Source of the DNA: an uncultured Negativibacillus sp.
Lineage (GTDB): Bacteria > Bacillota > Clostridia > Oscillospirales > Ruminococcaceae
Assembly (NCBI RefSeq): GCF_944388365.1
Contig: NZ_CALXIN010000001.1
Coordinates: forward strand, 24,776-88,775
DNA: 64,000 nt
Reading direction: 5' to 3'
Shown: piece after piece, positions 36,503-53,825 of the stretch
How the letters are laid out: the number at the start of each line of letters is the position of its first letter
Numbering within the stretch: the stretch's first letter is position 1
Made by a program: the position numbers and the translations under genes
The notes under the pieces: model-generated
Database searches by the model: none
Told to the model about the DNA's origin: nothing
What the model saw: only the letters and a program-made list of their open reading frames with translations

Positions 36503-37138
36503 GAATGTTTCTTCCTCCTTTTTTGCGGATAGTTGCAAAGATGTTTTCAGGACAGGTGACTGCCTGGGGAAATTGTAACGTTGTTGCGAAACTGTTTTGC
36601 ACACAACAAAACGCGCGAACCGGACATGTCCACAAAAGGACAGGCTGTTCAGAGCAATCCCCAAAATCCAGGAGAAAGAGCCAATTTGGCAGTATTTTCG
36701 ATTTTCTTTTTACTATTTGTAATAAAAATAAAATAAACTCCAATTTGTAAGCAATCAAAAAGGTCAATTTATGCTCCAGAAGCTTAAAAAAGGAAAGACC
36801 GCTTTCGAACACAAATACAACGGATTGCCTGATTGGTGGAGAGTGCGAGGAGTTTTCGAAAATTATATCAATCTCAAATCATTTTAAGAATAGACTCTGA
36901 AAGATGTTTTGCTGATGCAGCAACAGAGCGATGCAACACAAAAAGCGCACGGTATCCCTGTTTTCTTACAGAAAAATCAGCTAACCACTTAAAAAAATCC
37001 GGCGGTGCCGGAAGGTTTGCAGACAGGCATACAAAGAACAGATGCGCTTTTATTATACATTTGCCAACACATTTTAGAACATGTGAAAGGTCTATATTCA
37101 TTTTATATGTTATGAGAAGAGTTGTCAAGAAATTTGTG

Positions 37139-37167
37139 TTGACATTTAAAGGTTTGGGTGGTAACAT
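37139..37167 (+). promoter_or_regulatory. Probable promoter of the T-box leader
   Basis: TTGACA, 17 nt, then tgg-TAACAT (extended -10 type). Confidence 0.45.
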
Positions 37168-37189
37168 GAAACTTAAAACAAAGAGAATA

Positions 37190-37456
37190 TCCCAAAATCA
37201 ATGAAAGGGACGCGCATTGGCAAAATTTTGTCGGACAGAGAGCGGGCACAGCAGCTGAAAGTGCCTGTGACAGAATGCTTTTGTGTACCACCCGGGAGAG
37301 CGTGTGAGCTTGCAATACAAGGAAAGCACGACGCAGCGGCAGCGTTACAGGCCGAAAATGAGAGATACATCTCTTTCAAGAGATGTATAATACGGGTGGA
37401 ACCGTGGAGTAGAAAAAATGCTTCATCCCTGATGATGGGATGGAGCTTTTTGTTTT
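37190..37456 (+). promoter_or_regulatory. T-box riboswitch leader (probable Thr specifier) with terminator
   Basis: AGAGAG bulge plus a GGCAC...GUGCC distal stem with a loop ending in CUGAAA. Stem III is acatctct/agagatgt. T-box core is AAUACGGGUGGAACCGUGG (37394-37407). The terminator is gcttcatccc/gggatggagc plus a U-run (37420-37456). ACC-A at 37287-37290 lies in an internal loop. Confidence 0.8.
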
Positions 37457-37505
37457 ATCTGCCCAAAACCGGCGATACTGATAAAAAGAAAAAAGGGGGA
37501 CGCCG

Positions 37506-38081
37506 ATGGAGCAAGCACAAACACAAAAATCCGGCAGTACAAAGCCACAGGCGGAAATCTGTGACATCTATGATGTGTATGGCAACCGCACGGGAAAAAC
37601 CTTTGTACGGGGAGAACCGTTGTCTGACGGACAGTATGTCATGGTTGTGGATGTCTGGATTGTCAACAGCCGCGATGAGATTTTGATTCAAAAGCGTTCC
37701 GAACTGAAAAAGGATCTGCCAGGAACATGGGCAACGCACAGTGGATGTGTGCTGGCGGGAGAAAGCGCGCAGCAGGCGTGTATTCGGGAGCCGATGGAAG
37801 AAATTGGCATCCGGATTCTTCCGTCCCAGATTCATAAACTCAACCGAAAACTGCGCGGCAAGCTGCTCTCGGAAAATTTTGTAGTGGAACAGGATTTTGA
37901 TGCTGCCAAAGCTGTTTTGCAGGAGGAGGAAGTCAGCCAGATCAAATGGGTGACTGTCTCCCAGTTAAAACAGATGGCCAGCCGCAGGGAATTTTACCGT
38001 TATCCCGAATTTTTTGATGTTGTCAGATTTCTGGAGCAGCGTCGCAAACGAACATCAGCCCACAAAACCCCAAAAGAGTAA
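37506..38081 (+). CDS. Nudix hydrolase
   Basis: The region 'GCVLAGESAQQACIREPMEEIGI' is Nudix-box-like (GX5EX7REUXEEXGU). Confidence 0.8.
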   Translation: MEQAQTQKSGSTKPQAEICDIYDVYGNRTGKTFVRGEPLSDGQYVMVVDVWIVNSRDEILIQKRSELKKDLPGTWATHSGCVLAGESAQQACIREPMEEIGIRILPSQIHKLNRKLRGKLLSENFVVEQDFDAAKAVLQEEEVSQIKWVTVSQLKQMASRREFYRYPEFFDVVRFLEQRRKRTSAHKTPKE

Positions 38082-38117
38082 CGAGAGGACATTGATACGA
38101 TCAAGGAGGTATATTCT

Positions 38118-40055
38118 ATGATTCATGTAACATTGAAAGACGGCAGCGTCAAAGAATTTGAAGCAGGCGTATCCGTCATTGACGTAGCAAAAAGCCTGGG
38201 CGCAGGTCTTGCAAAAGCAGCCTGTGCAGGAAGAATCAACGGCGAAGTCGTTGACCTGAGAGCAGCAATCAACGAGGACTGCAATCTGGAAATCTGCACC
38301 TTTGATGACGAGGACGGCAAAAAAGCGTTCTGGCATACCGCAGCACATGTAATGGCACAGGCAATCCAGCACCTCTATCCAGAAGCTAAATTCGGCATCG
38401 GTCCTGCTTTGGATAATGGATGGTACTACGATATCGGCGGCGTAAAACCATTTACTCCGGATCAGTTTGCTGCCATTGAAGCAGAGATGAAAAAAATCGT
38501 CAAGGAAAATATTCCGGTAGAAAAACGCATCATCACCGTCGAAGAAGGCCGCACCATCTTTGCCGGTCAGGATTATAAACTGGAACTGCTGGAAGAGTAT
38601 GCAGAAAAAGGCTGGGAACTGAGCGTTTATACCCAGGGCGACTTTACCGACCTGTGTGCAGGACCTCATCTGATGAGCACCGGCACCATCAAGGCAGTGA
38701 AGCTGACACAGGCAACCAGCGCATACTGGAGAGGTGACTCCACTCGCGATACCATGTGCCGTATGTACGGCGTTGCTTTCCCGAAGGCAAGCGAGCTGGA
38801 AGCATATCTCAAACAGCAGGAAGAAGCGCTGCGCCGCGACCACAACAAGATCGGCCGTGAGCTGGAATACTTCACCACTGTTGATGTCATCGGTCAGGGT
38901 CTGCCGGTCATCCTGCCAAATGGTGCAAAGGTAATTCAGCAGCTGCAGCGCTGGATTGAAGACACCGAGGAAAAATGGGGCTACCAGCTGACAAAGACTC
39001 CTTATATGGCAAAACGTGAGCTGTACAAGATCAGCGGCCATTGGGATCACTATCTGGATGGCATGTTTGTACTGGGCGATCCTCACGACGAAACCAAGGA
39101 ATGCTTTGCACTTCGTCCAATGACCTGCCCATTCCAGTATCAGGTTTACCTCAACCGCGCACGTTCTTACCGTGACCTGCCGATGAGACTCAACGAAACT
39201 TCTACCCTGTTCCGTAACGAGGACTCCGGCGAGATGCACGGACTGATCCGTGTTCGTCAGTTCACCATTTCCGAAGGTCATCTGATTCTTCGTCCAGACC
39301 AGCTGGAAGATGAGTTCCGCGGCTGTCTGGAACTGGCAAAATATTGTCTGGAAACCGTCGGCCTTGCTGAGGATGTCAGCTACCGCTTCAGCCAGTGGGA
39401 TCCAAACAGAACCGATAAATACGAAGGCACCGCAGAGCAGTGGGAAGAAGCACAGAATGCAATGAAGAGAATTCTGGATCATCTGGGCCTGGATTACAAA
39501 GTCGGTGTAGACGAGGCTGCTTTCTATGGTCCAAAACTGGATATCCAGATCAAGAACGTTTTCGGCAAGGAAGATACCCTCATTACCATCCAGATCGACA
39601 TGCTGCTGGCTCAGAAGTTTGGCATGACCTATGTTGGAGAAGACGGCAAAGAGCATTATCCATACATCATCCACCGTACTTCGATCGGCTGCTATGAGCG
39701 TACTCTGGCTCTGCTGCTGGAAAAATATGCCGGTGCTCTGCCAACATGGCTGATGCCGACCCAGACAATGATCGTTCCAATCAGCGAAAAATATCATGAT
39801 TATGCACATGAGGTCCTGGAGAAACTCCGTGCAGCTGGTATCCGTGCAGAAGCAGACTGGCGCTCTGAAAAGATGGGCTACAAGATCCGTGAGGCACAGC
39901 TGAAGAAGATCCCATATATGCTGGTTGTTGGCGAAAAAGAAGCTGCCGATGGCACTGTTTCGGTTCGTACCCGCAAGGGCGGCGACAATGGTGTCATGAA
40001 GACAGAAGAATTTATCGAGCTGATTGTCGAAGAGATTCGCTCCAAACAGAGATAA
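38118..40055 (+). CDS. thrS: Threonine--tRNA ligase
   Basis: TGS domain at the N-terminus, editing-domain 'HTAAHVMAQA', class II core 'FRNEDSGEMHGLIRVRQFT', and a C-terminal anticodon-binding domain. Confidence 0.96.
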   Translation: MIHVTLKDGSVKEFEAGVSVIDVAKSLGAGLAKAACAGRINGEVVDLRAAINEDCNLEICTFDDEDGKKAFWHTAAHVMAQAIQHLYPEAKFGIGPALDNGWYYDIGGVKPFTPDQFAAIEAEMKKIVKENIPVEKRIITVEEGRTIFAGQDYKLELLEEYAEKGWELSVYTQGDFTDLCAGPHLMSTGTIKAVKLTQATSAYWRGDSTRDTMCRMYGVAFPKASELEAYLKQQEEALRRDHNKIGRELEYFTTVDVIGQGLPVILPNGAKVIQQLQRWIEDTEEKWGYQLTKTPYMAKRELYKISGHWDHYLDGMFVLGDPHDETKECFALRPMTCPFQYQVYLNRARSYRDLPMRLNETSTLFRNEDSGEMHGLIRVRQFTISEGHLILRPDQLEDEFRGCLELAKYCLETVGLAEDVSYRFSQWDPNRTDKYEGTAEQWEEAQNAMKRILDHLGLDYKVGVDEAAFYGPKLDIQIKNVFGKEDTLITIQIDMLLAQKFGMTYVGEDGKEHYPYIIHRTSIGCYERTLALLLEKYAGALPTWLMPTQTMIVPISEKYHDYAHEVLEKLRAAGIRAEADWRSEKMGYKIREAQLKKIPYMLVVGEKEAADGTVSVRTRKGGDNGVMKTEEFIELIVEEIRSKQR

Positions 40056-40174: not shown

Positions 40175-40203
40175 TTGCACTCGTCGAGTATTTCCTCTAT
40201 AAT
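40175..40203 (+). promoter_or_regulatory. Sigma-A-type promoter upstream of the 1076-aa fusion gene
   Basis: TTGCAC, 17 nt, TATAAT. Confidence 0.5.
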
Positions 40204-40281: not shown

Positions 40282-43200
40282 GTGAATCATAAAGTATTGT
40301 TACTAAACGCCGGTTATTCCCTTCGTGGGCTGATGAGGAAAAATCCCAATCTGCGCGATCAGTTTGCGCTGCTGGGAATCGACTTTGCAAACGAAGTGGT
40401 AATAACCGACCGAAATCAGCTGATTAACCAGATCAGCCAATCGGTAAAAGAGAATAAACTGCTTTTAATTGTAGATAATGCTCCTCAGCTGCAAGCCAGA
40501 GAGATTTTAGCACAGGGGTTTAATAAGCCGCTGCATAAGGACCCCACAGCGGTGGAAAATTTGCAGCTGTACTGCAGCAAAACCGGACGCGGAAACACAG
40601 AAGAGATGCTGCGCGGTACGATGATCCCACAGGGAGCAACGGTGCTCAGCGATCCTGCCTGCGCGCAGGCAGGATTTGTCATGTCTTATCCTTCGATCAA
40701 CATCGTGCTGGTGTCCGGTCCATCGCAGTCAACACTGCGCCTGATTGTCAACCAGCTTTATCCTGTGTTGCTCGGGAAATTTTTCCCTGGAGCCGTCATG
40801 GTGGACATTCCCCTCAAAGAGGGAAGAGAAGAGGATGTCCAGGATTACATTGAGCGGGTACAGGACCGTTTGTATGATTTTTTGCCGCTGCTGGGAGGGA
40901 CCGCAGATAATCCCGTGCTTCGTCTGATCGCAGTCAAGGAGGACGAAAAGTCTTCCCGCCAAAGCTGCAACAGCTTTTTGGAGGATCTGGTCAGCGAGTG
41001 CGGCAATGTTACGACCATTGCCCGCATTGGCATGAAAGGGCTGCGCGCTGTTGAGAAAAAACAGAAAAAATCGGCGGCAGTACCGACCGACTTTGCACAG
41101 CCGGCAACGGGGGATCATCCGTATGCGCCTATACAGCAAAGAGAACTGGCTTCTCAACAGAAGAGCAGCATCTATGCTGTAGGTGGAACAGTCGCCGCTG
41201 TGCAGCCAGAGCGTTCCACAGAAGGCATGATGCAGCAGTCATCCGGTCTGACGGACGATTATCTGATCGACGGTGATGACTTCTCGGACGATCAGGACGA
41301 TTGGGACGAGGAAACCGAGTGGGAAGAAAAACCCAAGAAAAAGAAAAAAGAAAAAAAGGTGAAGAAAAAAGAGCGGGACTACGAAGAAGAAAAACCGCGC
41401 CGTTCACCGATTATCAAGCTGTTGCTGCTTCTCTTTGTTCTGATTTTCTTAGGCTCGGTCGGCTATCTGGGCTATTATTATTGGAAATCTGCGCAGAACC
41501 GCAGTACATATGAGTCGCTTCGTGAGGTGTATGACAGCACAACGCTGTTTGCTCCGCCAGGTTATCCATCTGACTATGATAAGTCCTTTGCGGCTCTGTG
41601 GGAGATTAATCCTGATATTGTCGGATGGATCAGCATTGATGACACAGATTTGGACTATCCGGTCGTTCAGACAACCGATAATACAAAATACTACCGCATG
41701 AACTTTGAAGGCGAATACAGTGAGCATGCAGTGCCGTTTGTAGATACCGAGGTTGACTTGAAAGCGCCGAGCTCCAATATTATCATCTACGGCCACAATA
41801 TCCGCACCGACGGACAGATGTTCAACATTCTGAAGGGCTACAAGGATCTGGAATATTACCAGCAGCATCCGGTGGTTCAGTTTGACAGCGTTTATCATGA
41901 GGGAGAGTATAAGATCTTCTCCATCTTCTATACCAATACCAATGCTTCTCATGGAGAGATTTTCCCTTACCATGAGTTTATCAACGCACAGAGCACCGAG
42001 GAGATGCAGAACTACATCGACGACGTCATGATCCGCAGTATCATCAATACCGGCGTGGATGTTCTGCCGACCGATCAGCTGCTGACCCTGTCGACCTGTT
42101 CCTATGAATTTGATGATGCCCGTTTCGTCATCGTGGCAAGAAAGGTGAGGGACGGTGAGAGCTCCTCGGTGGATACCTCTCAGGCAACCATGAATCCGAC
42201 ACCGCTCTATCCAGATATTTGGTACCAGCTGTTTGGCGGCACCAAACCGGATGAAGCACAGCTCAAGGCAAATCTGCCGCAGTACTCTTCGTCGGCACAG
42301 GCTGAGGAACCACAGGACACCGTTTCTGCACAGCTGGATGAAACACCGATGGAGATACAGGATGAGGAAGGTACCTTCAGTGAGCTTGCCGATGTAAAGT
42401 ACGCACAGACTGCACAGCAAACGCCCGCGCCGCAGGAGCAAACGGTGGCAGTCCAGAGCGAGGCAGAGCCGACGCAGGAGGAAACAACGACGCAGTCGGA
42501 ACCTCCGGTGCAGGAAAGCCAGCCGGAACCTCAGGTGATGTCCGAACCGGAACAGCCCGAGCGGGAAGAATCCACGGCGCCGCAGGAGCAGGATCAAAAG
42601 CAGCCGGAACCGGAGCAGCCTTTGGAACAGGAAGTGCCTGAGGAACCGGAGCAGACAGAACCGGAGCTTCCGGATAAGATACAGACAGTACAGGAGGAAG
42701 AAGAACCTTCTATGGAAGAACCGAACCGTATCGTGGATTCTTCCAGCCTGCCAACACTGTCCGTCCAGATCAACGGCAGCACCGTCCGAGGTTCTGCTGA
42801 AGAGATTGTAGGACGAATGGTGGAAGCGGAGATGGGACCTACCTTCCAGACAGAGGCACTCAAAGCACAGGCTGTTGCCGCTTATACCTATGTGCTGTAT
42901 CACAATGAGCAGGGAACCAGCCCGTCGGTGGTTGCTAAGGATAGCGTTTCTTCCAAAGTGGCATCCGCAGTCCAGTCGGTACTGGGACAGGCTTTGTACT
43001 ATAATGGTTCTTATATCAATTCTACCTACTGTGCCTCCAATGCAGGATATTCGATGGACGCCCAGCATGTTTGGGGAAGTTATGTCCCCTATCTGGTCAG
43101 CGTAGAAAGCCCTGGAGATACCACACTGAAGGCCTACGGAGCCACCAAGACCTTCTCAGAAAGTCAGATGGCGCAGTATATTGAGGATTACCTGAATGTG

Positions 43201-43512
43201 GACCCATACAGCTGGGGAAGCCCAGAGGACTGGTTCTCCAATCCAGGGTATATCAATGGGCAGTATGTGGATACCATTGAAGTCTGCGGGCAGACAATCA
43301 CCGGCAGAAAGGTGCGGGAAAATCTGCTGAAGGCGCAGATCAACTCCGCGGCCTTTGAGGTTACATACGACGGAAACAGCTTCACCTTTACGACCTATGG
43401 CTATGGCCATGGCGTTGGTATGAGCCAACAGGGTGCAGACTATTATGCACAGCAGGGATGGAGCTATCAGGAGATTTTGACCCATTATTATACCGGTGCG
43501 CAGCTGCACTAA
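40282..43512 (+). CDS. Multidomain membrane protein: CinA-N/MoCF-like, TM helix, class-B sortase domain, P/E/Q-rich linker, SpoIID domain
   Basis: - aa ~1-170 are colinear with the CinA N-terminal domain ('MIPQGATVLSDPACAQAGFVM...IVLVSGPSQS').
- TM helix at nt 41407-41484.
- Sortase B at nt 41587-42156 ('NPDIVGWISIDDTDLDYPVVQ', 'IIYGHNI', 'LTLSTC', 'RFVIVARKV').
- SpoIID at nt ~42754-43509 ('EALKAQAVAAYTY', 'GYGHGVGMSQQGA'). Confidence 0.8.
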   Translation: MNHKVLLLNAGYSLRGLMRKNPNLRDQFALLGIDFANEVVITDRNQLINQISQSVKENKLLLIVDNAPQLQAREILAQGFNKPLHKDPTAVENLQLYCSKTGRGNTEEMLRGTMIPQGATVLSDPACAQAGFVMSYPSINIVLVSGPSQSTLRLIVNQLYPVLLGKFFPGAVMVDIPLKEGREEDVQDYIERVQDRLYDFLPLLGGTADNPVLRLIAVKEDEKSSRQSCNSFLEDLVSECGNVTTIARIGMKGLRAVEKKQKKSAAVPTDFAQPATGDHPYAPIQQRELASQQKSSIYAVGGTVAAVQPERSTEGMMQQSSGLTDDYLIDGDDFSDDQDDWDEETEWEEKPKKKKKEKKVKKKERDYEEEKPRRSPIIKLLLLLFVLIFLGSVGYLGYYYWKSAQNRSTYESLREVYDSTTLFAPPGYPSDYDKSFAALWEINPDIVGWISIDDTDLDYPVVQTTDNTKYYRMNFEGEYSEHAVPFVDTEVDLKAPSSNIIIYGHNIRTDGQMFNILKGYKDLEYYQQHPVVQFDSVYHEGEYKIFSIFYTNTNASHGEIFPYHEFINAQSTEEMQNYIDDVMIRSIINTGVDVLPTDQLLTLSTCSYEFDDARFVIVARKVRDGESSSVDTSQATMNPTPLYPDIWYQLFGGTKPDEAQLKANLPQYSSSAQAEEPQDTVSAQLDETPMEIQDEEGTFSELADVKYAQTAQQTPAPQEQTVAVQSEAEPTQEETTTQSEPPVQESQPEPQVMSEPEQPEREESTAPQEQDQKQPEPEQPLEQEVPEEPEQTEPELPDKIQTVQEEEEPSMEEPNRIVDSSSLPTLSVQINGSTVRGSAEEIVGRMVEAEMGPTFQTEALKAQAVAAYTYVLYHNEQGTSPSVVAKDSVSSKVASAVQSVLGQALYYNGSYINSTYCASNAGYSMDAQHVWGSYVPYLVSVESPGDTTLKAYGATKTFSESQMAQYIEDYLNVDPYSWGSPEDWFSNPGYINGQYVDTIEVCGQTITGRKVRENLLKAQINSAAFEVTYDGNSFTFTTYGYGHGVGMSQQGADYYAQQGWSYQEILTHYYTGAQLH

Positions 43513-43557
43513 AAACATAAAAAAGGCATGCACTTTCGTGCATGCCTTTTTTATGTT
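43513..43557. terminator. Terminator hairpin (21-bp perfect arms) in the convergent spacer
   Basis: aaacataaaaaaggcatgcac-tttc-gtgcatgccttttttatgttt. Confidence 0.8.
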
Positions 43558-43576
43558 TCCTGTTTTTCCGAGAAAG

Positions 43577-43612
43577 AAAAACCACCAACCCTTTTAGGGT
43601 TGGTGGTAAAGT
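43577..43612 (-). terminator. Terminator of the minus-strand giant gene
   Basis: accaccaaccct/agggttggtggt, with a U-run on the minus strand. Confidence 0.75.
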
Positions 43613-43616
43613 TTTA

Positions 43617-46600
43617 TTATCCGCGCTGGCTGTCGGATTCACCGTAGCCATAACCGGAATTGGTGCCATATCCACCGCCCTCAACAGTGACGGTAATCGT
43701 GGAAGTCTGCTGTTTTCCGGTGGATTTTTCAGTAGCAGTGATGGTAACGGTGGCAGTACCTGGGCTGACACCGGTTGCAATACCGTTGTTGTCTACATGA
43801 ACGACGTTGGAATCGCTGGAGGAGCACTGAACGGAAACGTCGCTGGCAGCCAGTTCAATACTGATGTCCAGCTCAACCGAAGAACCAACACTAACGGAGG
43901 CATCCTTTGCGGACAGACCTAAATCGGCCTGCTGATGCTGGTTGTTGTTCTGATTATTCTGGTCGCTCTGGTCGGTATTCGAGCCGCTGCTGGAGGAGGA
44001 ACCATTGGTACCTACGACGGTGACAGTGGTTTGAGAGGTGACGCTGCCGTCCTTTGTCGCCATGGTGATGGTGACGTCGGTCGTTTGATCCAGCGAATTG
44101 ATGGTGGTAACATAACCGTTTTCGTCGACATCCGCAATACGAGGATCGCTGGAGGTCCAGACAATTTCGGTGTTGGAAGGCTCGACCTTGTATTGCAGCT
44201 GAGCTTCCTCACCAGGATTCAGAACCAACGGATTTGCACTCATCTTAACCGAAGCGGTAGAGGTGCCCTCTGCCTTGACGGTAATGGTACAGCTTGCGGT
44301 CAATCCCGTGGAAGTAGTCGCTGTCAAGGTGGCCTGACCGGCAGATTTTCCGGTGATGATGACATCGGTGTCGGAATATCCGTCCTGAACGCTGATGGCA
44401 TCGCTGCTGGAGGAGAAGGTAACTTCGCCGACATCAGCGTTGGTCGGTGTGATCGACAGCTTGATGTTCTGCGCCTGACCGACGGTGAGTGTCAGGCTGC
44501 TCTGTGCAAAGACAGCCTGCGGATGGGAAGCATCCGCACCGCCTGCTGCAACGGTGATCTTGCAGGTTGCACTGTATTTTCCGTCGGAGGTAGTTACAGT
44601 GACGTCCGCAGTACCCGCCTTGACCGCAGTGAGCGAAGCTGTGGTGTCTCCGCTGGAGCTGACGCGAACGATGCTTTCATCGCTGCTCTTCCAGTTTAAA
44701 CTTGCCTGTGCGCCAGATGGCTGCAAGGTGGCAGTCAGAGTGGCAGTACCTTCCGGTTTCATTGCCAGAGCGCTGGTGTTGAGAGAGATACCGGTCGGCT
44801 CTTTGCCGTCGCTCTTGACGGTGATGGTGATATAATCAATATAGCCGCCATCGTCTGCCGTTACGGTAATCTGCGTGGTTCCTGCGCCAACAGCGGTGAC
44901 AAGACCGGTCGTTCTGTCTACCGTTGCGACCGAGGTGTTGCTCGAATCCCAGGTACAGGACTGAATTGCTGCATCGGACGGGCTGACCTTAGCGGTGAGG
45001 GTGGTAGTATCGCCCACCTTCATGCTCAGTTCACGGTCACCCTGGATAGTGATGCTCTTTACCTGACCGAGTTTCTTTGCGTATTCGGCAGCGTTAGCAT
45101 AGACTGCCGGATAGTATGCGTCCTCGTTGATGACTGCCTGATCGACATCAACACTGGCGTCTTCGCCATCACGAACTCTTCTGGCAACAACAACAAAACG
45201 TGCATCGGTAAACTCGTATGTACAGGTGGAGAGGGTCAGCAGTTCATCGCCGTATTTGACGTCGACAGGAGTGTCGAAAATGCTGCGGCGGCGAACTTCG
45301 TCGATAAATTCGTTGAACTCCTCTTCGCTCTCTGCATTAACGAAGTGGTTATACTGGAAAACGTTGCCGTTGTCGTGCTCTGCGGTGTTGTTGGTGATAA
45401 AGGCACCGATGATTTTGTAGGTGCCGGTCTTATAGACACTGTCAAAGCTGACGGTTGGATACTGCTGATAGAAGGAGAGCTGCTTATATTTGGTCAGGTC
45501 GTTGAACATCTGACCATCGTTGCGGATATTGTGTCCGTAGATGATGATATTGGTGCTTGGGGTTTTGACATCGCACTCATAGTCGATATATGGAGTACCA
45601 TAGTAGTCGTACTCGCCATCAAATCCCAAACGGCTGTAGTAATCATTGTCTGCCGCCTGCACAACAGGGAAATTGACGTTGGTGCCATCAATTTTCAGCC
45701 AGCCTTTGATATCCTCATTCTGCAGATAGAAAGGATAGAATTTTGGCAGATAGTCGTTAGGATAACCTTCGATGTTGGAGGCGTTGATTTTGCCGTCGGC
45801 AACGTCTTTTTCTGCCTGTTCCATCTGATCCTGAAGATTTGCCAGGTTTTCCTGCGACTTTTTATTCTGGGCATTGAAGTCGACCAGATAAAAGACCGAG
45901 CTGCAGAATACCAGCAGACAAATCCACATCAAAACCTTGCGGATCTTGTCAAAGGTGCTGTCGTCCTTGTTAGGGAAGATACGATATAAAATTCCTTTAA
46001 AGCCTTTTGGAGCTTTTGAAGGAGCCTGCGATTTTTTCTTTCCTTTTTTGCCGGTAGCTTCCAAAGGAGCATCCTCGGAAACGGCCAAAGCTCCCGAAGC
46101 GGCAGCAGCCATACCTTCCAGAACAGCTTCTTCAGCGTCACAGCTGTCAACAGGAGCCTGTGGATAGCTGGCGGCCAGTTTGCGGGCAAGATTAAACATT
46201 TTTGCAACAGCATCTTCGGTCATCTGGGTCAGAGAACGATAGTTGGAGGCATCCAGCTCCTGCATCATGCAGACACCGTTCAAGACAGCGGCGATATACG
46301 CCTTGCGTGTTTTGAATACGGCGTTTGGCAGAGTGATAGCAAGACCCAGCAGATCTTTTTCCTCCTGTTTAGAGGCACCCAGAGCCATGGCAGCAGCAAC
46401 GTTTGCGCTGACTGGACCAAAGGTCTGACCGATCTTATCGTTGATGCCCAGCTTCTCCAGATCCATCTGTTCCGGCTGGCAGGCATAGGTCGAATAGACC
46501 AGTTTTTTCTCCTTATCTACATTCAGGAACCGTTTTGCAGCCAGTCCGGCAGAACCGGATTCCGCAAAAGCAATGCGGATGTTTTTGCTGGCACACAGCA

Positions 46601-47387
46601 AAGCAACCGCCTGTTCGATGCCGCTGACATCAATGCCATAGACATGTTCACCAAGACGCTCGGCGGCAATGTTCAATACGGTTTTACAGTCCTTGGCAGC
46701 CTGCTGGCGGTCAGGATTGTTGTCCGAAATGCGAACGATGATTTCCGAACGCTTTTTATACAGTGCAACACAGGGTTTGGGAGCAGCCAGCAAATCTTTT
46801 AGCTGTTCTTCAACCTCTTCCATGCTCATCTCCATGATGCGAAGAACACGGCTGCAGCAGGGAGAAGAACTGGTCTTGTTGAGAATCTGATACAGGTAGT
46901 TTAAAAACAGGCTGTTTTGCTCTTCTTTGTCGGAAGGAAGAACAACGATGTGGAATCCTTCCCCTGCAATTTCAAAGCCAGGCAGCAGCGAATGGCGGCA
47001 CGGGAAGATACGTGCACCATCAGGCAGCATGGCAAGCTTGGCAGCTTCCTGCTCAGAAATTTTTGCGGATTTTACCAGACGATGTGCAATCTCGTTGTTT
47101 TCGGAGAGCGTTTTTCCGCATACCTCAGCAGCAGCGCGGATGCAGGCAGCATCGGCCGGCAGTTTGCCGGTCAGAGGACATAAAATCAATGCCTGCGGCT
47201 GTGCGCATGCTTCAAATGAATGTTTGAGACTGTCGATGTTCTTGGCAGGAAATTGCTGGATTTCATAGCCAAGCATCTTTAGCTCTTTTTCCATATAGGT
47301 TGATCCCAGAAGTCCGAGCGGATTGCCGGTGTCAACCCCGACGATAAAAACTTTCAATATATCCACCTCGATTACATCGCTGACCAT
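43617..47387 (-). CDS. Multidomain membrane protein: full-length CinA-like (MoCF plus degenerate PncC-like), TM helix, class-B sortase domain, five Big_2 Ig-like domains
   Basis: - CinA C-domain-like 'IRIAFAESGSAGLAAKRF'.
- TM helix at nt ~45876-45935.
- Sortase B at nt ~45162-45740 ('IKGWLKIDGTNVNFPVVQ', 'IIYGHNI', 'LTLSTC', 'RFVVVARRV').
- Repeated '...TLTA.V.P......W.SS....A.V...G.VTAV..G.A.ITV' units.
- The true start may be the TTG at 47357, which follows GAGGTGG. Confidence 0.8.
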   Translation of the reverse strand: MVSDVIEVDILKVFIVGVDTGNPLGLLGSTYMEKELKMLGYEIQQFPAKNIDSLKHSFEACAQPQALILCPLTGKLPADAACIRAAAEVCGKTLSENNEIAHRLVKSAKISEQEAAKLAMLPDGARIFPCRHSLLPGFEIAGEGFHIVVLPSDKEEQNSLFLNYLYQILNKTSSSPCCSRVLRIMEMSMEEVEEQLKDLLAAPKPCVALYKKRSEIIVRISDNNPDRQQAAKDCKTVLNIAAERLGEHVYGIDVSGIEQAVALLCASKNIRIAFAESGSAGLAAKRFLNVDKEKKLVYSTYACQPEQMDLEKLGINDKIGQTFGPVSANVAAAMALGASKQEEKDLLGLAITLPNAVFKTRKAYIAAVLNGVCMMQELDASNYRSLTQMTEDAVAKMFNLARKLAASYPQAPVDSCDAEEAVLEGMAAAASGALAVSEDAPLEATGKKGKKKSQAPSKAPKGFKGILYRIFPNKDDSTFDKIRKVLMWICLLVFCSSVFYLVDFNAQNKKSQENLANLQDQMEQAEKDVADGKINASNIEGYPNDYLPKFYPFYLQNEDIKGWLKIDGTNVNFPVVQAADNDYYSRLGFDGEYDYYGTPYIDYECDVKTPSTNIIIYGHNIRNDGQMFNDLTKYKQLSFYQQYPTVSFDSVYKTGTYKIIGAFITNNTAEHDNGNVFQYNHFVNAESEEEFNEFIDEVRRRSIFDTPVDVKYGDELLTLSTCTYEFTDARFVVVARRVRDGEDASVDVDQAVINEDAYYPAVYANAAEYAKKLGQVKSITIQGDRELSMKVGDTTTLTAKVSPSDAAIQSCTWDSSNTSVATVDRTTGLVTAVGAGTTQITVTADDGGYIDYITITVKSDGKEPTGISLNTSALAMKPEGTATLTATLQPSGAQASLNWKSSDESIVRVSSSGDTTASLTAVKAGTADVTVTTSDGKYSATCKITVAAGGADASHPQAVFAQSSLTLTVGQAQNIKLSITPTNADVGEVTFSSSSDAISVQDGYSDTDVIITGKSAGQATLTATTSTGLTASCTITVKAEGTSTASVKMSANPLVLNPGEEAQLQYKVEPSNTEIVWTSSDPRIADVDENGYVTTINSLDQTTDVTITMATKDGSVTSQTTVTVVGTNGSSSSSGSNTDQSDQNNQNNNQHQQADLGLSAKDASVSVGSSVELDISIELAASDVSVQCSSSDSNVVHVDNNGIATGVSPGTATVTITATEKSTGKQQTSTITVTVEGGGYGTNSGYGYGESDSQRG

Positions 47388-47469: not shown

Positions 47470-48645
47470 TTAAGAATTGGAAATAGAAAGTTCCTCGATA
47501 TTTTCGATGGCGCGGGAGATCAGTTCCTCCTGCTTCATCTCATCCTCAGCAAATTTGACAAACTTCAGCTGTGGTTTTGTACGCGGGTGTTTTGGCGTAA
47601 ATACTGTACAGCAGTCCTCGTAAGGGAGGATAGAAGTTTCGAAGGTGTCGATTTTGCGGGAGATGATGACGATCTCGTCCTTGTCCATGCCGATGACCGG
47701 ACGCAGTACCGGCATGTCGCAAGCTTCGTCGGTGCAAGCGATCGCCTGAATGGTCTGGCTTGCAACCTGGCCCACACTTTCGCCGGTGACCAGCGCCTCG
47801 CACTCGTTGGCACGGGCAACGCGGCAGGCAATCTTCATCATATAGCGACGCATGATGATGGTGAACAGATCTTCCGGACACTGGTCACGGATTGCTTCCT
47901 GAATCTCGGTGAAAGGAACGATGTACATTTTGATGCGTCCACAGTAGGAACACATCTTCTGTGCAAGGTCGATTACCTTCTGTTTTGCACGCTCCGAGGT
48001 GTACGGAGGAGAAACAAAATGGATCGCACTGATTTCCAGTCCGCGCTTTGCCATCATATAGCCGGCAACAGGGCTGTCAATACCGCCGGAGATCAGAAGC
48101 ATTGCTTTGCCGCCGCTTCCTACCGGAATGCCGCCGGCACCTTTGATCTGGCTGCCATGAATGTAGGCTGCATAGTCACGTACTTCTACCATAACGGTGA
48201 CGTCAGGGTGATGCACGTCAACGGTCAGATGCGGGAATTTTTCCAGCAGATACTCACCGACTCCTGCACAGATTTCCGGAGATTTGAGCGGGAAGGTTTT
48301 GTCCGAACGTTTTGCCTCCACTTTAAAGGTGGCAGCGTTCTCCAGTTCCTCTGCAAGGTATGCGGCAGCGGTGGTTTTGATGAGTTCAAAATCCTTATCC
48401 ACAACACAGGCACGAGTCAGTGCAGCAATACCAAATACCTTTTGCAGGCGGTCGACTGCCTCGTCCAAATCATAGCCGTCCTCGTCCGGCTCCACATAGA
48501 TGGTGGACTGGGCCTTTTTAAAGTGGAAGGAGCCGACCGGCATCAGCTTGCGGCGGGCATTTTTGATCAATCGGTCTTCAAACGCATGGCGGTTAAGACC
48601 CTTGAGGGCGATTTCGCCGTTTTTGAGCAGAATTACTTCTTTCAT
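47470..48645 (-). CDS. thiI: tRNA 4-thiouridine(8) synthase ThiI
   Basis: THUMP N-terminus and PP-loop 'LLISGGIDSPVAGYMMAKRG'. Confidence 0.93.
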   Translation of the reverse strand: MKEVILLKNGEIALKGLNRHAFEDRLIKNARRKLMPVGSFHFKKAQSTIYVEPDEDGYDLDEAVDRLQKVFGIAALTRACVVDKDFELIKTTAAAYLAEELENAATFKVEAKRSDKTFPLKSPEICAGVGEYLLEKFPHLTVDVHHPDVTVMVEVRDYAAYIHGSQIKGAGGIPVGSGGKAMLLISGGIDSPVAGYMMAKRGLEISAIHFVSPPYTSERAKQKVIDLAQKMCSYCGRIKMYIVPFTEIQEAIRDQCPEDLFTIIMRRYMMKIACRVARANECEALVTGESVGQVASQTIQAIACTDEACDMPVLRPVIGMDKDEIVIISRKIDTFETSILPYEDCCTVFTPKHPRTKPQLKFVKFAEDEMKQEELISRAIENIEELSISNS

Positions 48646-48671
48646 ACAATACCTCTCTATTCAAAATGGGA

Positions 48672-49811
48672 TTATTTTCGGAAACGTTCCAGACCCTGCT
48701 GCAAAGCGGACAGAAATACAGGAACCTCTTCAAGGGTGTTATAGCGGCCAAAGCTCAGGCGAATGGCGCTGTCGGCGCGCTGATGTTCCAGTCCCATGGA
48801 GGAAAGAACATGGCTGGCGCCGCCTTTGGCACAGGCAGAACCGCTGGAAACATAAATATTTTGTTCTTCCAAAAAGTGAAGCATGATCTCCGAACGGACT
48901 CCCAATGCAGAGAAGTTCAGAATATAAGGTGTCGCGTCGGAGGGAGAGTTGATGCAGATGTCAGGAAGTTTTGTCAATCCATCCAAAAGTGCGTCCCGAA
49001 TTTGGGTTACTCTTTCATGATTTTCCTGTTGTTCCTTCATTAGAAGTTCTGCGCAAAGTCCCATAGCACAGGCGCCGGAGATATTTTCGGTGCCAGGACG
49101 GACATTCTTTTCCTGCCCGCCGCCGAAGGTAACCGGACGGAAGCGTGTCCCTTTTTTGATGTACAGTGCGCCGATGCCCTTGGGCGCATAGATCTTGTGA
49201 CCGCTGACCGACAAAAAGTCGACATCCAGCGTTTTTCCCAGACGCAGCGGCTCCTTGCAGTAGGCCTGCACGGCATCACAGTGGATGAGCAGCTGCGGAT
49301 ATTTGCGGCGCAGCAGGCGGCTGACCTGTCCCACCGGCAGGATGCTGCCGACCTCATTGTTGACCGCCATCATCGAAACCAGCACGGTTTTGTCATCCAC
49401 CGCATCCAGCACCTGCTGCGCAGTGATCTGACCATTCTGGTCAGGCGTCAGGCGGACAATCTCCCAGCCCTCACTCTCGAGATATTTAACGGTATTGAGC
49501 ACCGCGTCATGCTCAAAGGCAGTGGTGACAATGCGATTTCCAAGGCGGCGCTGTGCACGGGCTGCTCCCAGAATGGCAATGTTATCGGCGTCGGTTCCGC
49601 CGGAGGTAAAATAAATTTCCGAGCTTTGGCATCCCAGCGAACGGGCGACCTGCTCCCGCGCAGTGTCCAGCCGTTTCTGCGCCTGAAATCCCTTGCGGTG
49701 CAAGGAGGATGGATTTCCGTAGCAGTCGGTCAGCATCTCATAGACAAGTTTGGCGGCTTCCTCTCTGGTTCGGGTCGTCGCGCTGTTATCATAGTAAATT
49801 TCTTCCGGCAA
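48672..49811 (-). CDS. Cysteine desulfurase (NifS/IscS-like, class V aminotransferase)
   Basis: PLP-lysine 'SVSGHKIYAPKGIGALY' and active-site loop 'SSGSACA'. Adjacent to thiI. Confidence 0.9.
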   Translation of the reverse strand: MPEEIYYDNSATTRTREEAAKLVYEMLTDCYGNPSSLHRKGFQAQKRLDTAREQVARSLGCQSSEIYFTSGGTDADNIAILGAARAQRRLGNRIVTTAFEHDAVLNTVKYLESEGWEIVRLTPDQNGQITAQQVLDAVDDKTVLVSMMAVNNEVGSILPVGQVSRLLRRKYPQLLIHCDAVQAYCKEPLRLGKTLDVDFLSVSGHKIYAPKGIGALYIKKGTRFRPVTFGGGQEKNVRPGTENISGACAMGLCAELLMKEQQENHERVTQIRDALLDGLTKLPDICINSPSDATPYILNFSALGVRSEIMLHFLEEQNIYVSSGSACAKGGASHVLSSMGLEHQRADSAIRLSFGRYNTLEEVPVFLSALQQGLERFRK

Positions 49812-50136: not shown

Positions 50137-51156
50137 ATGGCGATCAATCGATTTATGCGCGCAACACTCAAAGCGCTCTCTTACCCCGAAATTTTGGACA
50201 AGAAAAACGGATACCGCCTGCAGCGGGCTGCAGTAAATGCGGCACATCCGCATGTGCTGCGACCGTTTTATAAAATCTGGGACCGTGAGGTCTATGCAGG
50301 GGATCACAACGTCCCTGTGCGAATTTTTTCTCCGGATCTGGAGGGTACCTATCCGGCGCTGCTGTTTTTCCACGGCGGTGGATGGGTCACCGGCAATATT
50401 GACTCCTACGACAAAGTTTGCACCAATATGGCTAAAATTACCAGACATACGGTGATTTCGGTCGATTACCGGCTGGCGCCGGAATATAAGTTTCCGGCAG
50501 CGCCGGAGGACTGTTACCAGGTGGCTCGGGAGCTGTTTTTGCACAGCGATCTGTTTGGCATTAAGCCGGAGCAGATCACGCTGATTGGCGACAGCGCAGG
50601 CGGCAATCTGGCAGCGGTTGTTTCGCTGATGGCACGTGACCGCGGCGAATTTTTGCCAAGCCGACAGATTTTACTATATCCTGCCACCAACAACGACCAT
50701 ACGGAAAACTCGCCGTTTGAATCGGTCCGTTCCAACGGGAAAGGTTATCTGCTGACCAGCAAGCGTATGGTGGATTATATGGCGCTGTATCGTTCCTCAG
50801 AGGAAGATCTGCACAATCCGTATTATGCGCCGCTGATCTGCGATGACCTGCGCAACCAGCCACAGACGCTCATTATCACCGCAGAGTTTGATCCGCTGCG
50901 CGACGAAGGAGAAGCCTATGGACGGAAACTGATGGAGTTTGGCAATGTGGTGGAGATGCACCGCATCCATGACGCTCTGCATGGATTTATGTCGCTGGGT
51001 CCAGGATTCAAGCATGTGAAAAAAGCGTACCGTTATATCAATGCATTTTTGAATCGTCCGGTGGATCACTTGAACCGGATGGTTTTTGAGTCGCAGGACA
51101 CTGGTGACGAACAGAAACAGAATGATCACGAAGAGGTGAATGGCCTTGAAGCCTAA
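50137..51156 (+). CDS. Alpha/beta hydrolase, hormone-sensitive-lipase-like esterase
   Basis: Oxyanion 'FHGGGW', nucleophile elbow 'GDSAGGNL', and a C-terminal 'DALHGF'. Confidence 0.85.
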   Translation: MAINRFMRATLKALSYPEILDKKNGYRLQRAAVNAAHPHVLRPFYKIWDREVYAGDHNVPVRIFSPDLEGTYPALLFFHGGGWVTGNIDSYDKVCTNMAKITRHTVISVDYRLAPEYKFPAAPEDCYQVARELFLHSDLFGIKPEQITLIGDSAGGNLAAVVSLMARDRGEFLPSRQILLYPATNNDHTENSPFESVRSNGKGYLLTSKRMVDYMALYRSSEEDLHNPYYAPLICDDLRNQPQTLIITAEFDPLRDEGEAYGRKLMEFGNVVEMHRIHDALHGFMSLGPGFKHVKKAYRYINAFLNRPVDHLNRMVFESQDTGDEQKQNDHEEVNGLEA

Positions 51157-52420
51157 CGTAAAAGATTGGAGCCGGTTGGACAATGCGGCAAAAATTTTCC
51201 CACCAACCAGCAACAAGCAGGATACCAAGGTGTTTCGATTTGCCTGTCAGCTCAATGAGTGGGTGGACAGAGATATTTTGCAGCAGGCAGCCGAGCGGAC
51301 GTTGGAGGTATTTCCTACCTTCCGCAGCGTTCTCAAGCACGGACTGTTCTGGTATTATCTGGAAAAGACAGATTTGCTTCCGATTGTGGAGCCTGAATAC
51401 CGTCCGCCGTGTGGGCAGATCTATGATCCCAGCAGCCGCAACCTGCTGTTTGAGATCACCTGTTATCGCGACCGAATCAACCTGGAGGTCTATCATGCGC
51501 TGACCGATGGAACCGGTGCGCTCCAATTTTTAAAGACACTGGTCTGCAACTATCTGAGCATCAAATATCCGCAGCTTCGCCAGGAGCTGTTGTCGGAGAT
51601 AGAATATGATGCTTCGGTAAGCGACCGTGGTGAGGACAGCTTTTTAAAATACTATGACCCGCATCAAAAGGTCAAACAAACCAAGGCAAGAAAATCCTGT
51701 CAGCTCAAAGGTGCAAGGGTGCCGGAGGGAAGATTGAAGATCATCGAGGGAATTATGCCGGTCAAGGAGGTCATTGCGCTGGCAAAGGCGCACCAGACCA
51801 CGCTGACGGTGCTGCTTACCTCCATGATGCTGATTGCCTTTGCCCAGGAAATTCCTCTGCGGAAAAAGAAACGTCCGGTGATCTTGTCGGTGCCGGTTAA
51901 TCTGCGCAATTATTTCCATTCGGACACCGCACGCAACTTTTTTGGAGTCATTCAGGTGGGCTATAACTTCTCAGAAGGTCCAGGAACGCTGGAGGATGTG
52001 ATTGCACATGTCAAAGAGGAGTTTAAGCGGGAGCTGACGGCGGAGCAGCTGGGCGCCAGAATGGCGGCTCTGTCAAAGGCAGAGCACAATTTTGTTGCTC
52101 GTGCGGTGCCGCTGGTCATTAAGGACGTCATTTTGTGGACAGCGGATACAATTAGTGAGTCCTATACGGCAGGAAGCATCTCCAACATTGGAAAAATCGA
52201 CCTGCCACAGGCTGCCAAACCGTATGTCAAACGTTTTGATGTCTTTGTCAGCACCGATAAATTGCAGGCGTGTCTGTGCTCCTACGGAGAGGAGCTTACC
52301 ATCAGCTTTACTTCAGCTTTTTTGAGTGCCAATGTACAGAAGCACTTTTTCCGGCAGCTGACCAACGAGGGCATTTCGGTCGAGATTCAGTCGAATAAGT
52401 TGGAGGATGATATCCAGTGA
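51140..52420 (+). CDS. HxxxD acyltransferase of the condensation-domain/alcohol-acetyltransferase superfamily
   Basis: 'EVYHALTDGTGALQFLKTL' (HxxxDG). 426 aa. Overlaps the upstream gene by 17 nt. Confidence 0.7.
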   Translation: MALKPNVKDWSRLDNAAKIFPPTSNKQDTKVFRFACQLNEWVDRDILQQAAERTLEVFPTFRSVLKHGLFWYYLEKTDLLPIVEPEYRPPCGQIYDPSSRNLLFEITCYRDRINLEVYHALTDGTGALQFLKTLVCNYLSIKYPQLRQELLSEIEYDASVSDRGEDSFLKYYDPHQKVKQTKARKSCQLKGARVPEGRLKIIEGIMPVKEVIALAKAHQTTLTVLLTSMMLIAFAQEIPLRKKKRPVILSVPVNLRNYFHSDTARNFFGVIQVGYNFSEGPGTLEDVIAHVKEEFKRELTAEQLGARMAALSKAEHNFVARAVPLVIKDVILWTADTISESYTAGSISNIGKIDLPQAAKPYVKRFDVFVSTDKLQACLCSYGEELTISFTSAFLSANVQKHFFRQLTNEGISVEIQSNKLEDDIQ

Positions 52421-53088
52421 AGTACTGTGAAAAATGCAAGGTGTATGTCCCTTCGGGAAGAGAACGCTGCCCGTTGTGTCAGCGCTTTCTGGTGGAGGGA
52501 GAACATCAGGGATATAACGACGAAATTTTTCCTTATATTCCAACCATGTATCATCAGCACAATCTGCTGATCCGTATCCTGTTGTTTTTATCTGTTGTTT
52601 TTTGTGTCGTCTGTTTTGCGCTGAACCTGCTGATTTGGAACCACAGCTGGTGGTCGTTATTTGTTCTGTTGGGTGTGGCGGCTGCCTGGCTGACGGTGGC
52701 ACAGGCTATTCGCAAAAGAACCACCTTCTGCAAACATGTGTTGTACCAGATGGTCACCATTGCGCTGGTAGCGGTGATTTTTGATCTGCTGACCGGTTTT
52801 TATCGTTGGTCGTTTAACTATGTGATACCGGCTTTGTGCGCTTTTTCCATGGTGGTGGTTGCGACCATCGCGGTGATGGGCCATCGGTTGATTCAAAACT
52901 ACATCATTTACATGGTGGTGTCCGCAATCTTTGGCATTGTACCGCTGCTGTTTTTGATTCCGGATTGGACCACCGTCTTGTGGCCGACGGTGTTGACCGC
53001 CTCGGCTGGTGTGATCTATCTGGCAGCATTGGTGCTGTTCATTGGACAGGACACCTGGGTGGAACTGAAAAAAAGGCTTCATATGTAA
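52417..53088 (+). CDS. Zinc-ribbon plus polytopic membrane protein (DUF6320-like)
   Basis: 'YCEKCKVYVPSGRERCPLCQ', then 5-6 TM helices. GTGA start/stop overlap with the upstream gene. Confidence 0.6.
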   Translation: MKYCEKCKVYVPSGRERCPLCQRFLVEGEHQGYNDEIFPYIPTMYHQHNLLIRILLFLSVVFCVVCFALNLLIWNHSWWSLFVLLGVAAAWLTVAQAIRKRTTFCKHVLYQMVTIALVAVIFDLLTGFYRWSFNYVIPALCAFSMVVVATIAVMGHRLIQNYIIYMVVSAIFGIVPLLFLIPDWTTVLWPTVLTASAGVIYLAALVLFIGQDTWVELKKRLHM

Positions 53089-53125: not shown

Positions 53126-53138
53126 AGATGGATTGTAC

Positions 53139-53699
53139 TTAGAAAAGGAGAAGGAGCAGTGCAACTGCTACAGCAACGCCTCCTCCGATTCGGTTGAGGA
53201 CCAGAGCAGCTTCGGAGGGCTCTGCATTGCTGTATCGCCAGCCGTAGCCCAGATACCACGAAGTCTGCGGAAAAAACAGATTAAAAATACCGACAGCAAT
53301 CAGCACTACGATGAGCAGAATATTTTTGGGCTCCTGAGGTTCTGGTATCCTGCTGATGACAGCTTTCTGAAGGACACTGCCTTCAATGTAGCTTGTTTCA
53401 TCATAATCATCGCTCCATCCGCCAAACCCGCTGGAAAATTCGCCGCTGCGTTGCTCATTCCACCACCAGGAGGAGCCGTCAGGATAGGTGATGTTGACCT
53501 TATAACCGTTGGCGTATGCAGAAACGGTGTAGCGGTAGAGATTGGTCCCATCCGAAATGGTGCCTGCTTCTGGGTTTACCGTGAGGTTAATTCCATTGAC
53601 AGAGGTTGTATAGGAGATATCGGCAGATTCCGAGGATGTACAAGAGCAGAGGGAAAATATCAGCAACATTCCAAAGAGAAATACCAGCCATTTTTTCAT
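53139..53699 (-). CDS. Putative lipoprotein with a C-terminal membrane anchor
   Basis: Signal peptide plus lipobox 'MKKWLVFLFGMLLIFSLC'. Two C-terminal hydrophobic helices. Confidence 0.6.
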   Translation of the reverse strand: MKKWLVFLFGMLLIFSLCSCTSSESADISYTTSVNGINLTVNPEAGTISDGTNLYRYTVSAYANGYKVNITYPDGSSWWWNEQRSGEFSSGFGGWSDDYDETSYIEGSVLQKAVISRIPEPQEPKNILLIVVLIAVGIFNLFFPQTSWYLGYGWRYSNAEPSEAALVLNRIGGGVAVAVALLLLLF

Positions 53700-53825
53700 G
53701 CAAACACCTCACTTAAAACAGAGGAAAACCATATTTATTGGCTTTATTATACCATCTCTAAAGGAAGGATACAATCAAGACGAAAGAAAAACCAGAGGAC
53801 ATCTTTGATATCCTCTGGTTTTGTA

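Follow-up and report, generated by a model that had tools for sequence, protein, structure and literature searches.

Two convergent open reading frames (ORFs) in a 64 000-nucleotide stretch of DNA from an uncultured Negativibacillus sp. (contig NZ_CALXIN010000001.1, positions 24 776–88 775; the whole stretch is referred to as the window) encode predicted membrane proteins in which a CinA-fold module, a single transmembrane (TM) helix, a class B sortase (SrtB) domain and a C-terminal passenger are joined in one chain. The proteins were named P1 (ORF 40282–43512, plus strand) and P2 (ORF 43617–47387, minus strand; residues counted from the ATG at 47387). They are members of a widespread, unstudied family of Oscillospiraceae-type gut Clostridia, the ‘CinA-anchored class B sortases’. 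P1 and P2 are best read as bitopic sortases whose cytoplasmic part is a scaffold derived from CinA and whose tethered passenger is directed at peptidoglycan or at binding, and which would together constitute an envelope module; the probability of this model as a whole was put at roughly 0.55. Taken alone, the architecture, the loss of CinA catalysis and the intactness of the sortases are held with high confidence, and the scaffold and envelope-module role is put forward tentatively.

The family was delimited by an exhaustive HMMER search with residues 1–770 of P2 against 1.84 billion representatives at 50% identity, which returned 17 152 matches. Among the best 145 non-self matches, 105 representatives with lengths of 500–1400 amino acids (aa) combine a CinA-like N-terminus, one TM helix and SrtB; all counts out of 105 given below refer to this set. 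The number is a lower bound because such proteins still filled the matches at the end of those listed. Pfam analysis of 47 distant members identified Sortase in 46, CinA_KH in 45, MoCF_biosynth in 41, CinA in 40, SpoIID in 14 and Big_2 in five. A word-indexed search recovered close relatives only (15 for P2 and 25 for P1), as did a pattern-based genome scan, apart from sortase-only matches in Lachnospiraceae; the closest named genome is that of Negativibacillus massiliensis (73% identity). The initial annotation, made from the letters of the window alone, had spoken of a small family, but the architecture is common to no fewer than 105 distinct clusters at 50% identity, which already stand in databases under generic names: ‘class B sortase’ (Zongyangia hominis, WP_262397658.1), ‘competence/damage-inducible protein A’ [metagenome-assembled genomes (MAGs) of Clostridia, 897–1024 aa], ‘nicotinamide-nucleotide amidohydrolase family protein’ (Provencibacterium sp., 1252 aa) and ‘Ig-like domain-containing protein’ (Negativibacillus sp.). 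It had also allowed that the architecture might turn out to be a common and already characterised one; common it is, but not characterised. No paper on CinA–sortase or SpoIID–sortase fusions was found among Creative Commons-licensed PubMed Central papers and bioRxiv, where absence is not proof, and within that literature its statement that no characterised example is known stands. Two proteins, P0039 and P0040, have sortase domains that are 77–78% identical to that of P1 and carry GH92 (PF17678/PF07971) and TPR repeats, respectively, in precomputed Pfam assignments, which hints at further fusion partners.

Both P1 and P2 carry a class B sortase domain (Table 1). The Pfam Sortase cut-off of 26.6 bits was passed by both (P1, 44.4 bits; P2, 42.6 bits); the TIGR03064 equivalog cut-off of 153.75 bits was passed by P1, and P2 fell marginally short of it, by 2.75 bits. 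Against solved structures the P1 domain matched SrtB from Bacillus anthracis (1rz2, E = 5.6e-35) and Staphylococcus aureus (1qwz, E = 7e-33), and the triad residues fell in register. Homology of the catalytic domains to those of the S. aureus, B. anthracis, Clostridioides difficile and Clostridium perfringens enzymes (MEROPS C60B; E values of 1e-33 to 1e-35) is accompanied by likeness in the aligned His–Cys–Arg triad and in a predicted N-terminal membrane helix directly before the domain. Over the TM and sortase regions P1 and P2 are 48% identical (285 aa, E = 3e-72). Their catalytic residues occupy the positions of H130, C223 and R233 of S. aureus SrtB, and the triad is invariant in close homologues. 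Of the triad as originally described, the His, the Cys and the Cys codons (42097–42099 for P1 C606 and 45222–45224 for P2 C722) were correct, but the Arg aligned to R233 is that of ‘DARFV’ (P1 R614, P2 R730) and not that of ‘VARxV’. The sortase domains share 82–90% amino-acid identity with relatives and are more constrained than the CinA modules; the triad is intact in 91/105 representatives. Both sortase domains are predicted to be active.

Each protein has one hydrophobic helix, preceded in P1 by nine Lys/Arg residues and followed by three (five and two, respectively, in P2), and an N-terminal signal peptide was found in neither. Since the helix is single and the Lys/Arg excess lies upstream of it, both proteins are inferred to be type II bitopic proteins with an N-in/C-out orientation. 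The CinA module would then be cytoplasmic and the sortase extracellular.

The CinA fold was recognized in both N-termini by profiles and by AlphaFold2 models searched with Foldseek, although the two are barely alike in sequence (BLASTP E = 0.026). In P2 the profile NF001813 matched residues 50–352 (E = 1e-35, 123.6 bits; equivalog cut-off 379), the Pfam models CinA_KH (54.3 bits) and CinA/PncC (28.1 bits) scored above their cut-offs, and a match among solved structures was Streptococcus mutans CinA (6mr3, E = 2e-9); the model [predicted local distance difference test (pLDDT) score ∼90] was superposed by Foldseek on full-length Thermus thermophilus CinA (TtCinA; 4cta, E = 5.9e-20, 415 columns). 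In P1 the NF001813 match is weak (residues 24–164, E = 9e-9, 34.8 bits against the same cut-off) and Foldseek aligned the model (pLDDT ∼88) with TtCinA 4ct8 over ∼290 columns of the COG1058 and KH domains only (E = 7.7e-10). The three-domain fold is thus complete in P2 and partial in P1, and neither protein reaches the CinA equivalog score. Compared with the solved CinA proteins (4CT8/4CTA and 6MR3), P2 shares COG1058, KH and PncC and P1 shares the first two domains. A CinA/MoCF-like N-terminus had been proposed for both proteins; the fold is present in both, but in P1 it amounts to COG1058 and KH (∼262 aa) with no PncC. The order of CinA fold, one TM helix, SrtB and passenger was otherwise borne out by profiles, by matches to solved structures and by AlphaFold2 with Foldseek.

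The key residues of TtCinA are E12, D45, D76, E156 and E187 for the ADP-ribose pyrophosphatase site and K301, T340 and R377 for that of the nicotinamide mononucleotide (NMN) deamidase (PMC4246079). In an alignment of all of the N-termini, P2 keeps two of these eight (E156 and T340), with the substitutions D45K, D76A, E187M, K301D and R377L, and its close homologues likewise retain just E156 and T340/S. P1 keeps one of the five pyrophosphatase residues (the E187 column) and the deamidase domain is missing. An active CinA-like module is therefore probably not what the window copies hold, most or all catalytic residues having been lost in both. Against three relatives, the proportion of nonsynonymous differences (pN) in these modules is 0.18–0.25, compared with a proportion of synonymous differences (pS) of 0.66–0.77, and pN is far below pS in every domain of P1 and P2. 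The CinA modules of P1 and P2 are predicted to be pseudoenzymes kept by purifying selection. In the same alignment all eight residues are kept in 46/105 representatives, and in roughly half of the family the CinA part appears to be functional as NMN deamidase and as ADP-ribose pyrophosphatase. Many members are full-length canonical CinA by sequence; one of them, P0054, combines SrtB with a match to S. mutans CinA over the full length of the latter (E = 5.9e-84). CinA itself is a soluble enzyme of ∼400 aa; in contrast, P1 and P2 are tethered to a membrane helix and a sortase, and the Mg2+/ADP-ribose residues and K301/R377 are replaced.

Directly past the last sortase strand nearly all members carry the motif A-x-x-N-P-x-P-[LV]-[YM]-P-x-x-[WY]-Y, often followed by GGxKP. 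It reads NPTPLYPDIWY in P1 and NEDAYYPAVY in P2 and, at ∼90% identity to relatives, is more tightly conserved than the CinA modules. Members without a globular passenger run on from it into S/T/P-rich tails of 100–160 aa. Canonical SrtBs stop before this position: they comprise ∼220–250 aa, with few cytoplasmic residues and nothing past the last strand. P1 and P2 differ from them in the 260–410 aa CinA-fold cytoplasmic module, in the NPxPLYPxxWY extension and in the 430–490 aa of spacer and passenger.

The passenger of P1 is a SpoIID/LytB domain and that of P2 consists of Big_2 repeats. The C-terminal 250 aa of P1 resemble the SpoIID proteins of B. anthracis (4RWR, E = 2e-29) and C. difficile (5I1T, E = 1.5e-28; Foldseek E = 1.9e-14), at E ∼1e-29 overall, with the catalytic Glu conserved: that of P1 ‘VEAEMG’ aligns with ‘AGEM’/‘ASEM’ of 5i1t and 4rwr (C. 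difficile E101). The Foldseek matches of P1 as a whole were to SpoIID, SrtB and CinA. The domain is predicted from these matches to cleave glycan strands. Canonical SpoIID has ∼340 aa, its own N-terminal TM anchor and sigma-E control; in P1 the anchor is instead a pseudo-CinA–TM–sortase unit, and the promoter is vegetative-looking. Sortase and SpoIID domains are separated in P1 by a spacer of ∼180 aa (42229–42770, residues 650–830) that is extremely rich in Glu, Gln and Pro (of the 206 aa of residues 630–835, 37 are Glu, 30 are Gln and 27 are Pro). Relatives in which SpoIID is split off do not have this spacer, and their sortase protein ends at about P1 residue 666.

A search for SrtB-type sorting signals (motif, hydrophobic tail and basic end) had been suggested as a check; run on the window ORFs, it gave only spurious matches in non-coding frames, and neither P1 nor P2 has a C-terminal sorting signal. 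No substrate gene lies near the pair, whereas characterised srtB genes adjoin those of their substrates (isd and pilus loci). The earlier suggestion that the passenger might anchor itself to the wall does not fit the order of the chain. What a sortase transfers is the part of the chain on the N-terminal side of the cut, and the passenger lies C-terminal to the sortase, so that a cut in cis would release it; self-anchoring is accordingly unlikely.

P2 is the last of three genes arranged head to tail on the minus strand, after an aminotransferase gene of the cysteine desulfurase type and thiI; on the plus strand P1 follows thrS. The order aminotransferase (iscS)–thiI–[CinA–SrtB], with short gaps, was found at seven loci, namely the window, L002 (N. 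massiliensis), L013 and the loci L011, L015, L016 and L017, which hold distant members with 30–35% identity. SpoIID is fused in 29/105 representatives and is otherwise often encoded immediately downstream. The downstream neighbours in L016 (947 aa) and L015 (687 aa) each combine SpoIID with a TM helix and with a sortase-like domain whose triad is dead. SpoIID-bearing paralogues without the sortase triad were found in L012 (6998–13486), L015 (11174–13237) and L016 (5406–8249), and in each case the neighbouring paralogue keeps the triad. P0080 combines an intact CinA and SpoIID with a dead triad (N/N/R) and adjoins a 574-aa sortase predicted to be active. As judged from these residues, the paralogue pairs of distant genomes have undergone complementary degeneration, one partner having an intact CinA and a putatively active sortase and the other a degenerate N-terminus, a dead triad and SpoIID. 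This recalls the pseudoenzyme paralogue pairs of envelope machines, by analogy only, and the window pair differs in that both sortase triads are intact.

The sortase domains closest to that of P1 belong to SpoIID-bearing representatives (68–52% identity) and those closest to that of P2 belong to Big_2-bearing representatives (74–51%), compared with 51% between P1 and P2. Since each thus has closer sortase relatives elsewhere than in the other, the duplication long predates the species. In two relatives SpoIID is a separate gene of 320 aa [L002, 13888–14850 (−); L013, 10016–10978 (+)] with its own strong AAAGGAGG ribosome-binding site; the protein has neither a signal peptide nor a TM helix. 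Read-through or frameshifting that would join it to the sortase gene was considered and rejected, as the gene, 38 nt downstream, is in a different frame and has a ribosome-binding site to itself.

The two ORFs, their coordinates and the 104-bp spacer between them (43513–43616) with its two strong terminator hairpins agree exactly with the initial annotation. The coordinates of all features are collected in Table 1. The hairpin at 43581–43607 has T-runs on both strands. The GTG start of P1 and its GGAAGG ribosome-binding site are kept in relatives (four orthologous regions aligned). The listed ATG of P2 (47387) has no ribosome-binding site, whereas the TTG at 47357, ten codons inside the ORF, is preceded by the Shine–Dalgarno sequence GAGGTG and agrees with the start of the homologues (MKVYIVGVD); for these reasons the true start is probably the TTG, giving a protein of 1246 aa. 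Upstream of P2 the sequence TTGAAA-17-TATTAT at 47445–47417 is a candidate promoter by consensus match only. Both promoters look vegetative in type rather than sigma-E-like.

Table 1. Features of the P1–P2 locus; positions are those of the window and residue numbers are those of the respective protein.
Feature	Position	Strand	Description and basis
P1 promoter, sigma-A-type	40175..40203	+	TTGCAC-17-TATAAT; invariant across four aligned orthologous upstream regions; consensus match only
P1	40282..43512	+	1076 aa, GTG start; truncated, predicted pseudo-CinA, TM, SrtB, E/Q/P-rich spacer, SpoIID/LytB
P1 COG1058 + KH fold	40282..41067	+	Residues 1–262, no PncC; NF001813, AlphaFold2, Foldseek
P1 single TM helix	41410..41484	+	Residues 377–401; sole hydropathy peak ≥1.6; Lys-rich stretch before helix
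P1 class B sortase	41575..42171	+	Residues ∼432–630, H505/C606/R614; TIGR03064 168.4 bits; 1rz2 and 1qwz matches
P1 family-signature motif	42184..42249	+	AxxNPTPLYPDIWYQLFGGTKP, residues 635–656; N638 in 97/105, P644 in 102/105; 91% identical to relatives
P1 SpoIID/LytB domain	42757..43509	+	Residues ∼826–1076; TIGR02669 142.9 bits (cut-off 83.3); catalytic Glu of ‘EAEM’ kept
P1 intrinsic terminator	43514..43557	+	20–21-bp stem; free energy −30.8 kcal/mol; z −10.3 versus shuffles
P2 intrinsic terminator	43581..43607	−	12-bp stem; free energy −21.1 kcal/mol; z −5.9; then UUUUUCU
P2	43617..47387	−	1256 aa as listed; predicted pseudo-CinA, TM, SrtB, five Big_2 repeats
P2 five Big_2 Ig-like repeats	43665..45062	−	Residues 776 to ∼1240; Pfam Big_2 (PF02368) E = 7.9e-42, 141.5 bits, above cut-off
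P2 class B sortase	45153..45707	−	Residues ∼561–745, H619/C722/R730; TIGR03064 151.0 bits; 48% identical to P1
P2 single TM helix	45879..45935	−	Residues 485–503; sole Kyte–Doolittle peak
P2 complete CinA fold, COG1058 + KH + PncC	46158..47357	−	Residues ∼11–410; NF001813, Pfam, AlphaFold2, Foldseek
thiI (47470–48645) and class-V aminotransferase/cysteine desulfurase gene (48672–49811)	47470..49811	−	Directly upstream of P2; Pfam

No CinA or sortase besides P1 and P2 was found within the window. A whole-window Rfam scan gave no leader or riboswitch near the P1–P2 locus and no T-box leader anywhere in the window at the gathering threshold; the one RNA gene is a tRNA-Leu(CAG) at 56119–56205. On the plus-strand side of the locus, thrS comes 36 nt after a Nudix gene (gap 38082–38117; region 37506–40055). 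Between the start of rny and the Nudix gene, ∼840 bp (36665–37505) hold no convincing ORF and no Rfam match; in the counterpart of this interval in relatives a 93-aa gene is called (L013, 4513–4794). Further away, three co-directional ORFs (51140–52420, 52417–53088 and 53133–54977, plus strand) lie downstream of an Abhydrolase_3 esterase gene, and the 426-aa and 614-aa products, without a Pfam match, flank a DUF6320 protein.

According to the preferred model, the short cytoplasmic tail of SrtB would have been replaced in this family by a whole CinA protein (COG1058, KH and PncC), and the ectodomain would begin with a helical stalk and the SrtB domain; the NPxPLYPxxWY motif would come next, then a spacer of low complexity that spans the wall and, in many cases, a passenger. 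In P1 and P2 the pseudo-CinA may have been retained as a folded cytoplasmic scaffold for dimerisation or localisation, as is suggested by the dimerisation of TtCinA through its COG1058 domains. The pair would form a membrane-anchored envelope module that sets a peptidoglycan-cutting domain (P1) and a binding domain (P2) beside sortase transpeptidation at the site of new-wall synthesis.

Several observations weigh against this model. That the pseudo-CinA acts as a scaffold or in dimerisation is purely inferential. AlphaFold2 confidence is low for both sortase domains and for the post-sortase motif, so that the sortase fold assignment rests mainly on sequence matches to solved SrtB, and no sortase substrate with a sorting signal is encoded within the 64-kb window. 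At distant loci it is often the case that the triad of the SpoIID-bearing paralogue is dead; the sortase fold may therefore have a non-catalytic role, and this may extend to P1 and P2. Finally, a separate SpoIID without an export signal in close relatives is a poor fit to a simple tethered extracellular passenger.

The rival that survives best, although it was judged unlikely, takes P1 for the sporulation SpoIID of the organism, an engulfment lytic transglycosylase with an unusual N-terminal anchor, and the locus for an essentially sporulation-related one. The fold and the catalytic Glu are present, the family occurs in Clostridia, the germination gene ypeB lies near one member and P1 matches the spore_II_D model TIGR02870 with E = 6.5e-48. 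The score of that match (163.6 bits) is nevertheless under the equivalog cut-off of 234.75, whereas the generic SpoIID/LytB model is passed; the conserved P1 promoter is sigma-A-like and not sigma-E-like, on consensus evidence only, and the neighbourhood (thrS, thiI, iscS and rny) is one of housekeeping genes.

It is improbable that P1 and P2 couple the two sides of the membrane, with a cytoplasmic CinA that binds a nucleotide (NMN, ADP-ribose, NAD or a wall precursor) and controls the outer sortase and SpoIID through the TM helix or through oligomerisation, so that NAD or precursor status would be linked to wall remodelling. The fusion or adjacency of CinA/PncC and SrtB has been kept over deep divergence, the 46 members noted above retain all ligand-contacting and catalytic residues, and even the pseudo-CinA modules are still under purifying selection. 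In P1 and P2, however, the Mg2+- and ligand-binding residues are gone, and the module is connected to the single helix by a charged linker of ∼70–115 aa with pLDDT below 50, through which allostery would be poorly transmitted. The trans-membrane signalling that the initial annotation had left among its options is disfavoured by the length and disorder of this juxtamembrane linker together with the lost ligand residues. No sortase is known to be regulated by a trans-membrane nucleotide-binding module, which also counts against it.

As little credence was given to the view that the parts have no joint function, cinA and an adjoining srtB downstream of thiI having been fused by loss of a stop codon into a neutral tether whose CinA part is decaying here. 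An unfused version of the linkage does exist in an Oscillospiraceae MAG (L007, 9427–13544), in which a stand-alone, intact gene for a 168-aa PncC (Pfam CinA, E = 9.8e-51) precedes a tandem of three srtB genes and ends 1 nt upstream of the first, and the catalytic residues have decayed in more than half of the members. Yet neutral relics would be deleted, whereas here a folded module (pLDDT ∼90), in which pN is far below pS, has long outlasted the loss of catalysis, and the architecture persists across >100 clusters at 50% identity.

Least probable of all is processing in cis, in which the sortase would cut its own chain in or after NPxPLYPxxWY, freeing the passenger into the wall, while the sortase itself would stay acylated or linked to the wall: almost all members do have a motif with near-invariant Asn and Pro 20–30 residues past the catalytic Arg, the passengers come after a long disordered spacer and split versions with a separate SpoIID exist in close relatives, but the motif has no Thr-Gly or Thr-Asn scissile pair of the known SrtB signals (NPQTN, NPKTG and [SP]PxTG) and is equally conserved in passenger-less members. 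Its presence in dead-triad members as well (P0080; L012_574 is listed alongside) suggests a structural role for the motif, and the split SpoIID versions suggest that covalent linkage of the passenger is dispensable. An assembly or annotation artefact was ruled out: the ORFs are intact, independent assemblies encode proteins that are 98–99% identical and all domains are under purifying selection.

A bolder reading, which was thought unlikely, is a heteromeric trans-envelope machine of CinA–TM–SrtB and SpoIID-bearing partners, conserved across gut Clostridia and transcribed with iscS–thiI, in which transpeptidation and glycan cleavage outside the membrane would be physically coupled by CinA or pseudo-CinA to the metabolism of pyridine nucleotides or ADP-ribose, or to a wall precursor linked to a nucleotide. 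What CinA does physiologically has been unclear ever since it was discovered as a competence/damage-induced protein associated with the membrane. If such a machine existed, CinA would have a direct part in building the cell envelope.

Sortases are textbook small, single-domain anchored enzymes, and CinA is a soluble enzyme of NAD salvage whose cellular role has long been debated. In many genomes the protein labelled ‘CinA’ is a membrane protein with a predicted outer sortase, a point of consequence for annotation and metabolic reconstruction alike. Natural experiments within the family (intact versus dead CinA, active versus dead sortase and fused versus split SpoIID) make the question testable. 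The deeply conserved fusion or adjacency of CinA and sortase, with SpoIID as a recurrent partner, suggests, as a Rosetta-stone hint, a functional link between CinA and wall assembly in a large group of abundant gut Clostridia.

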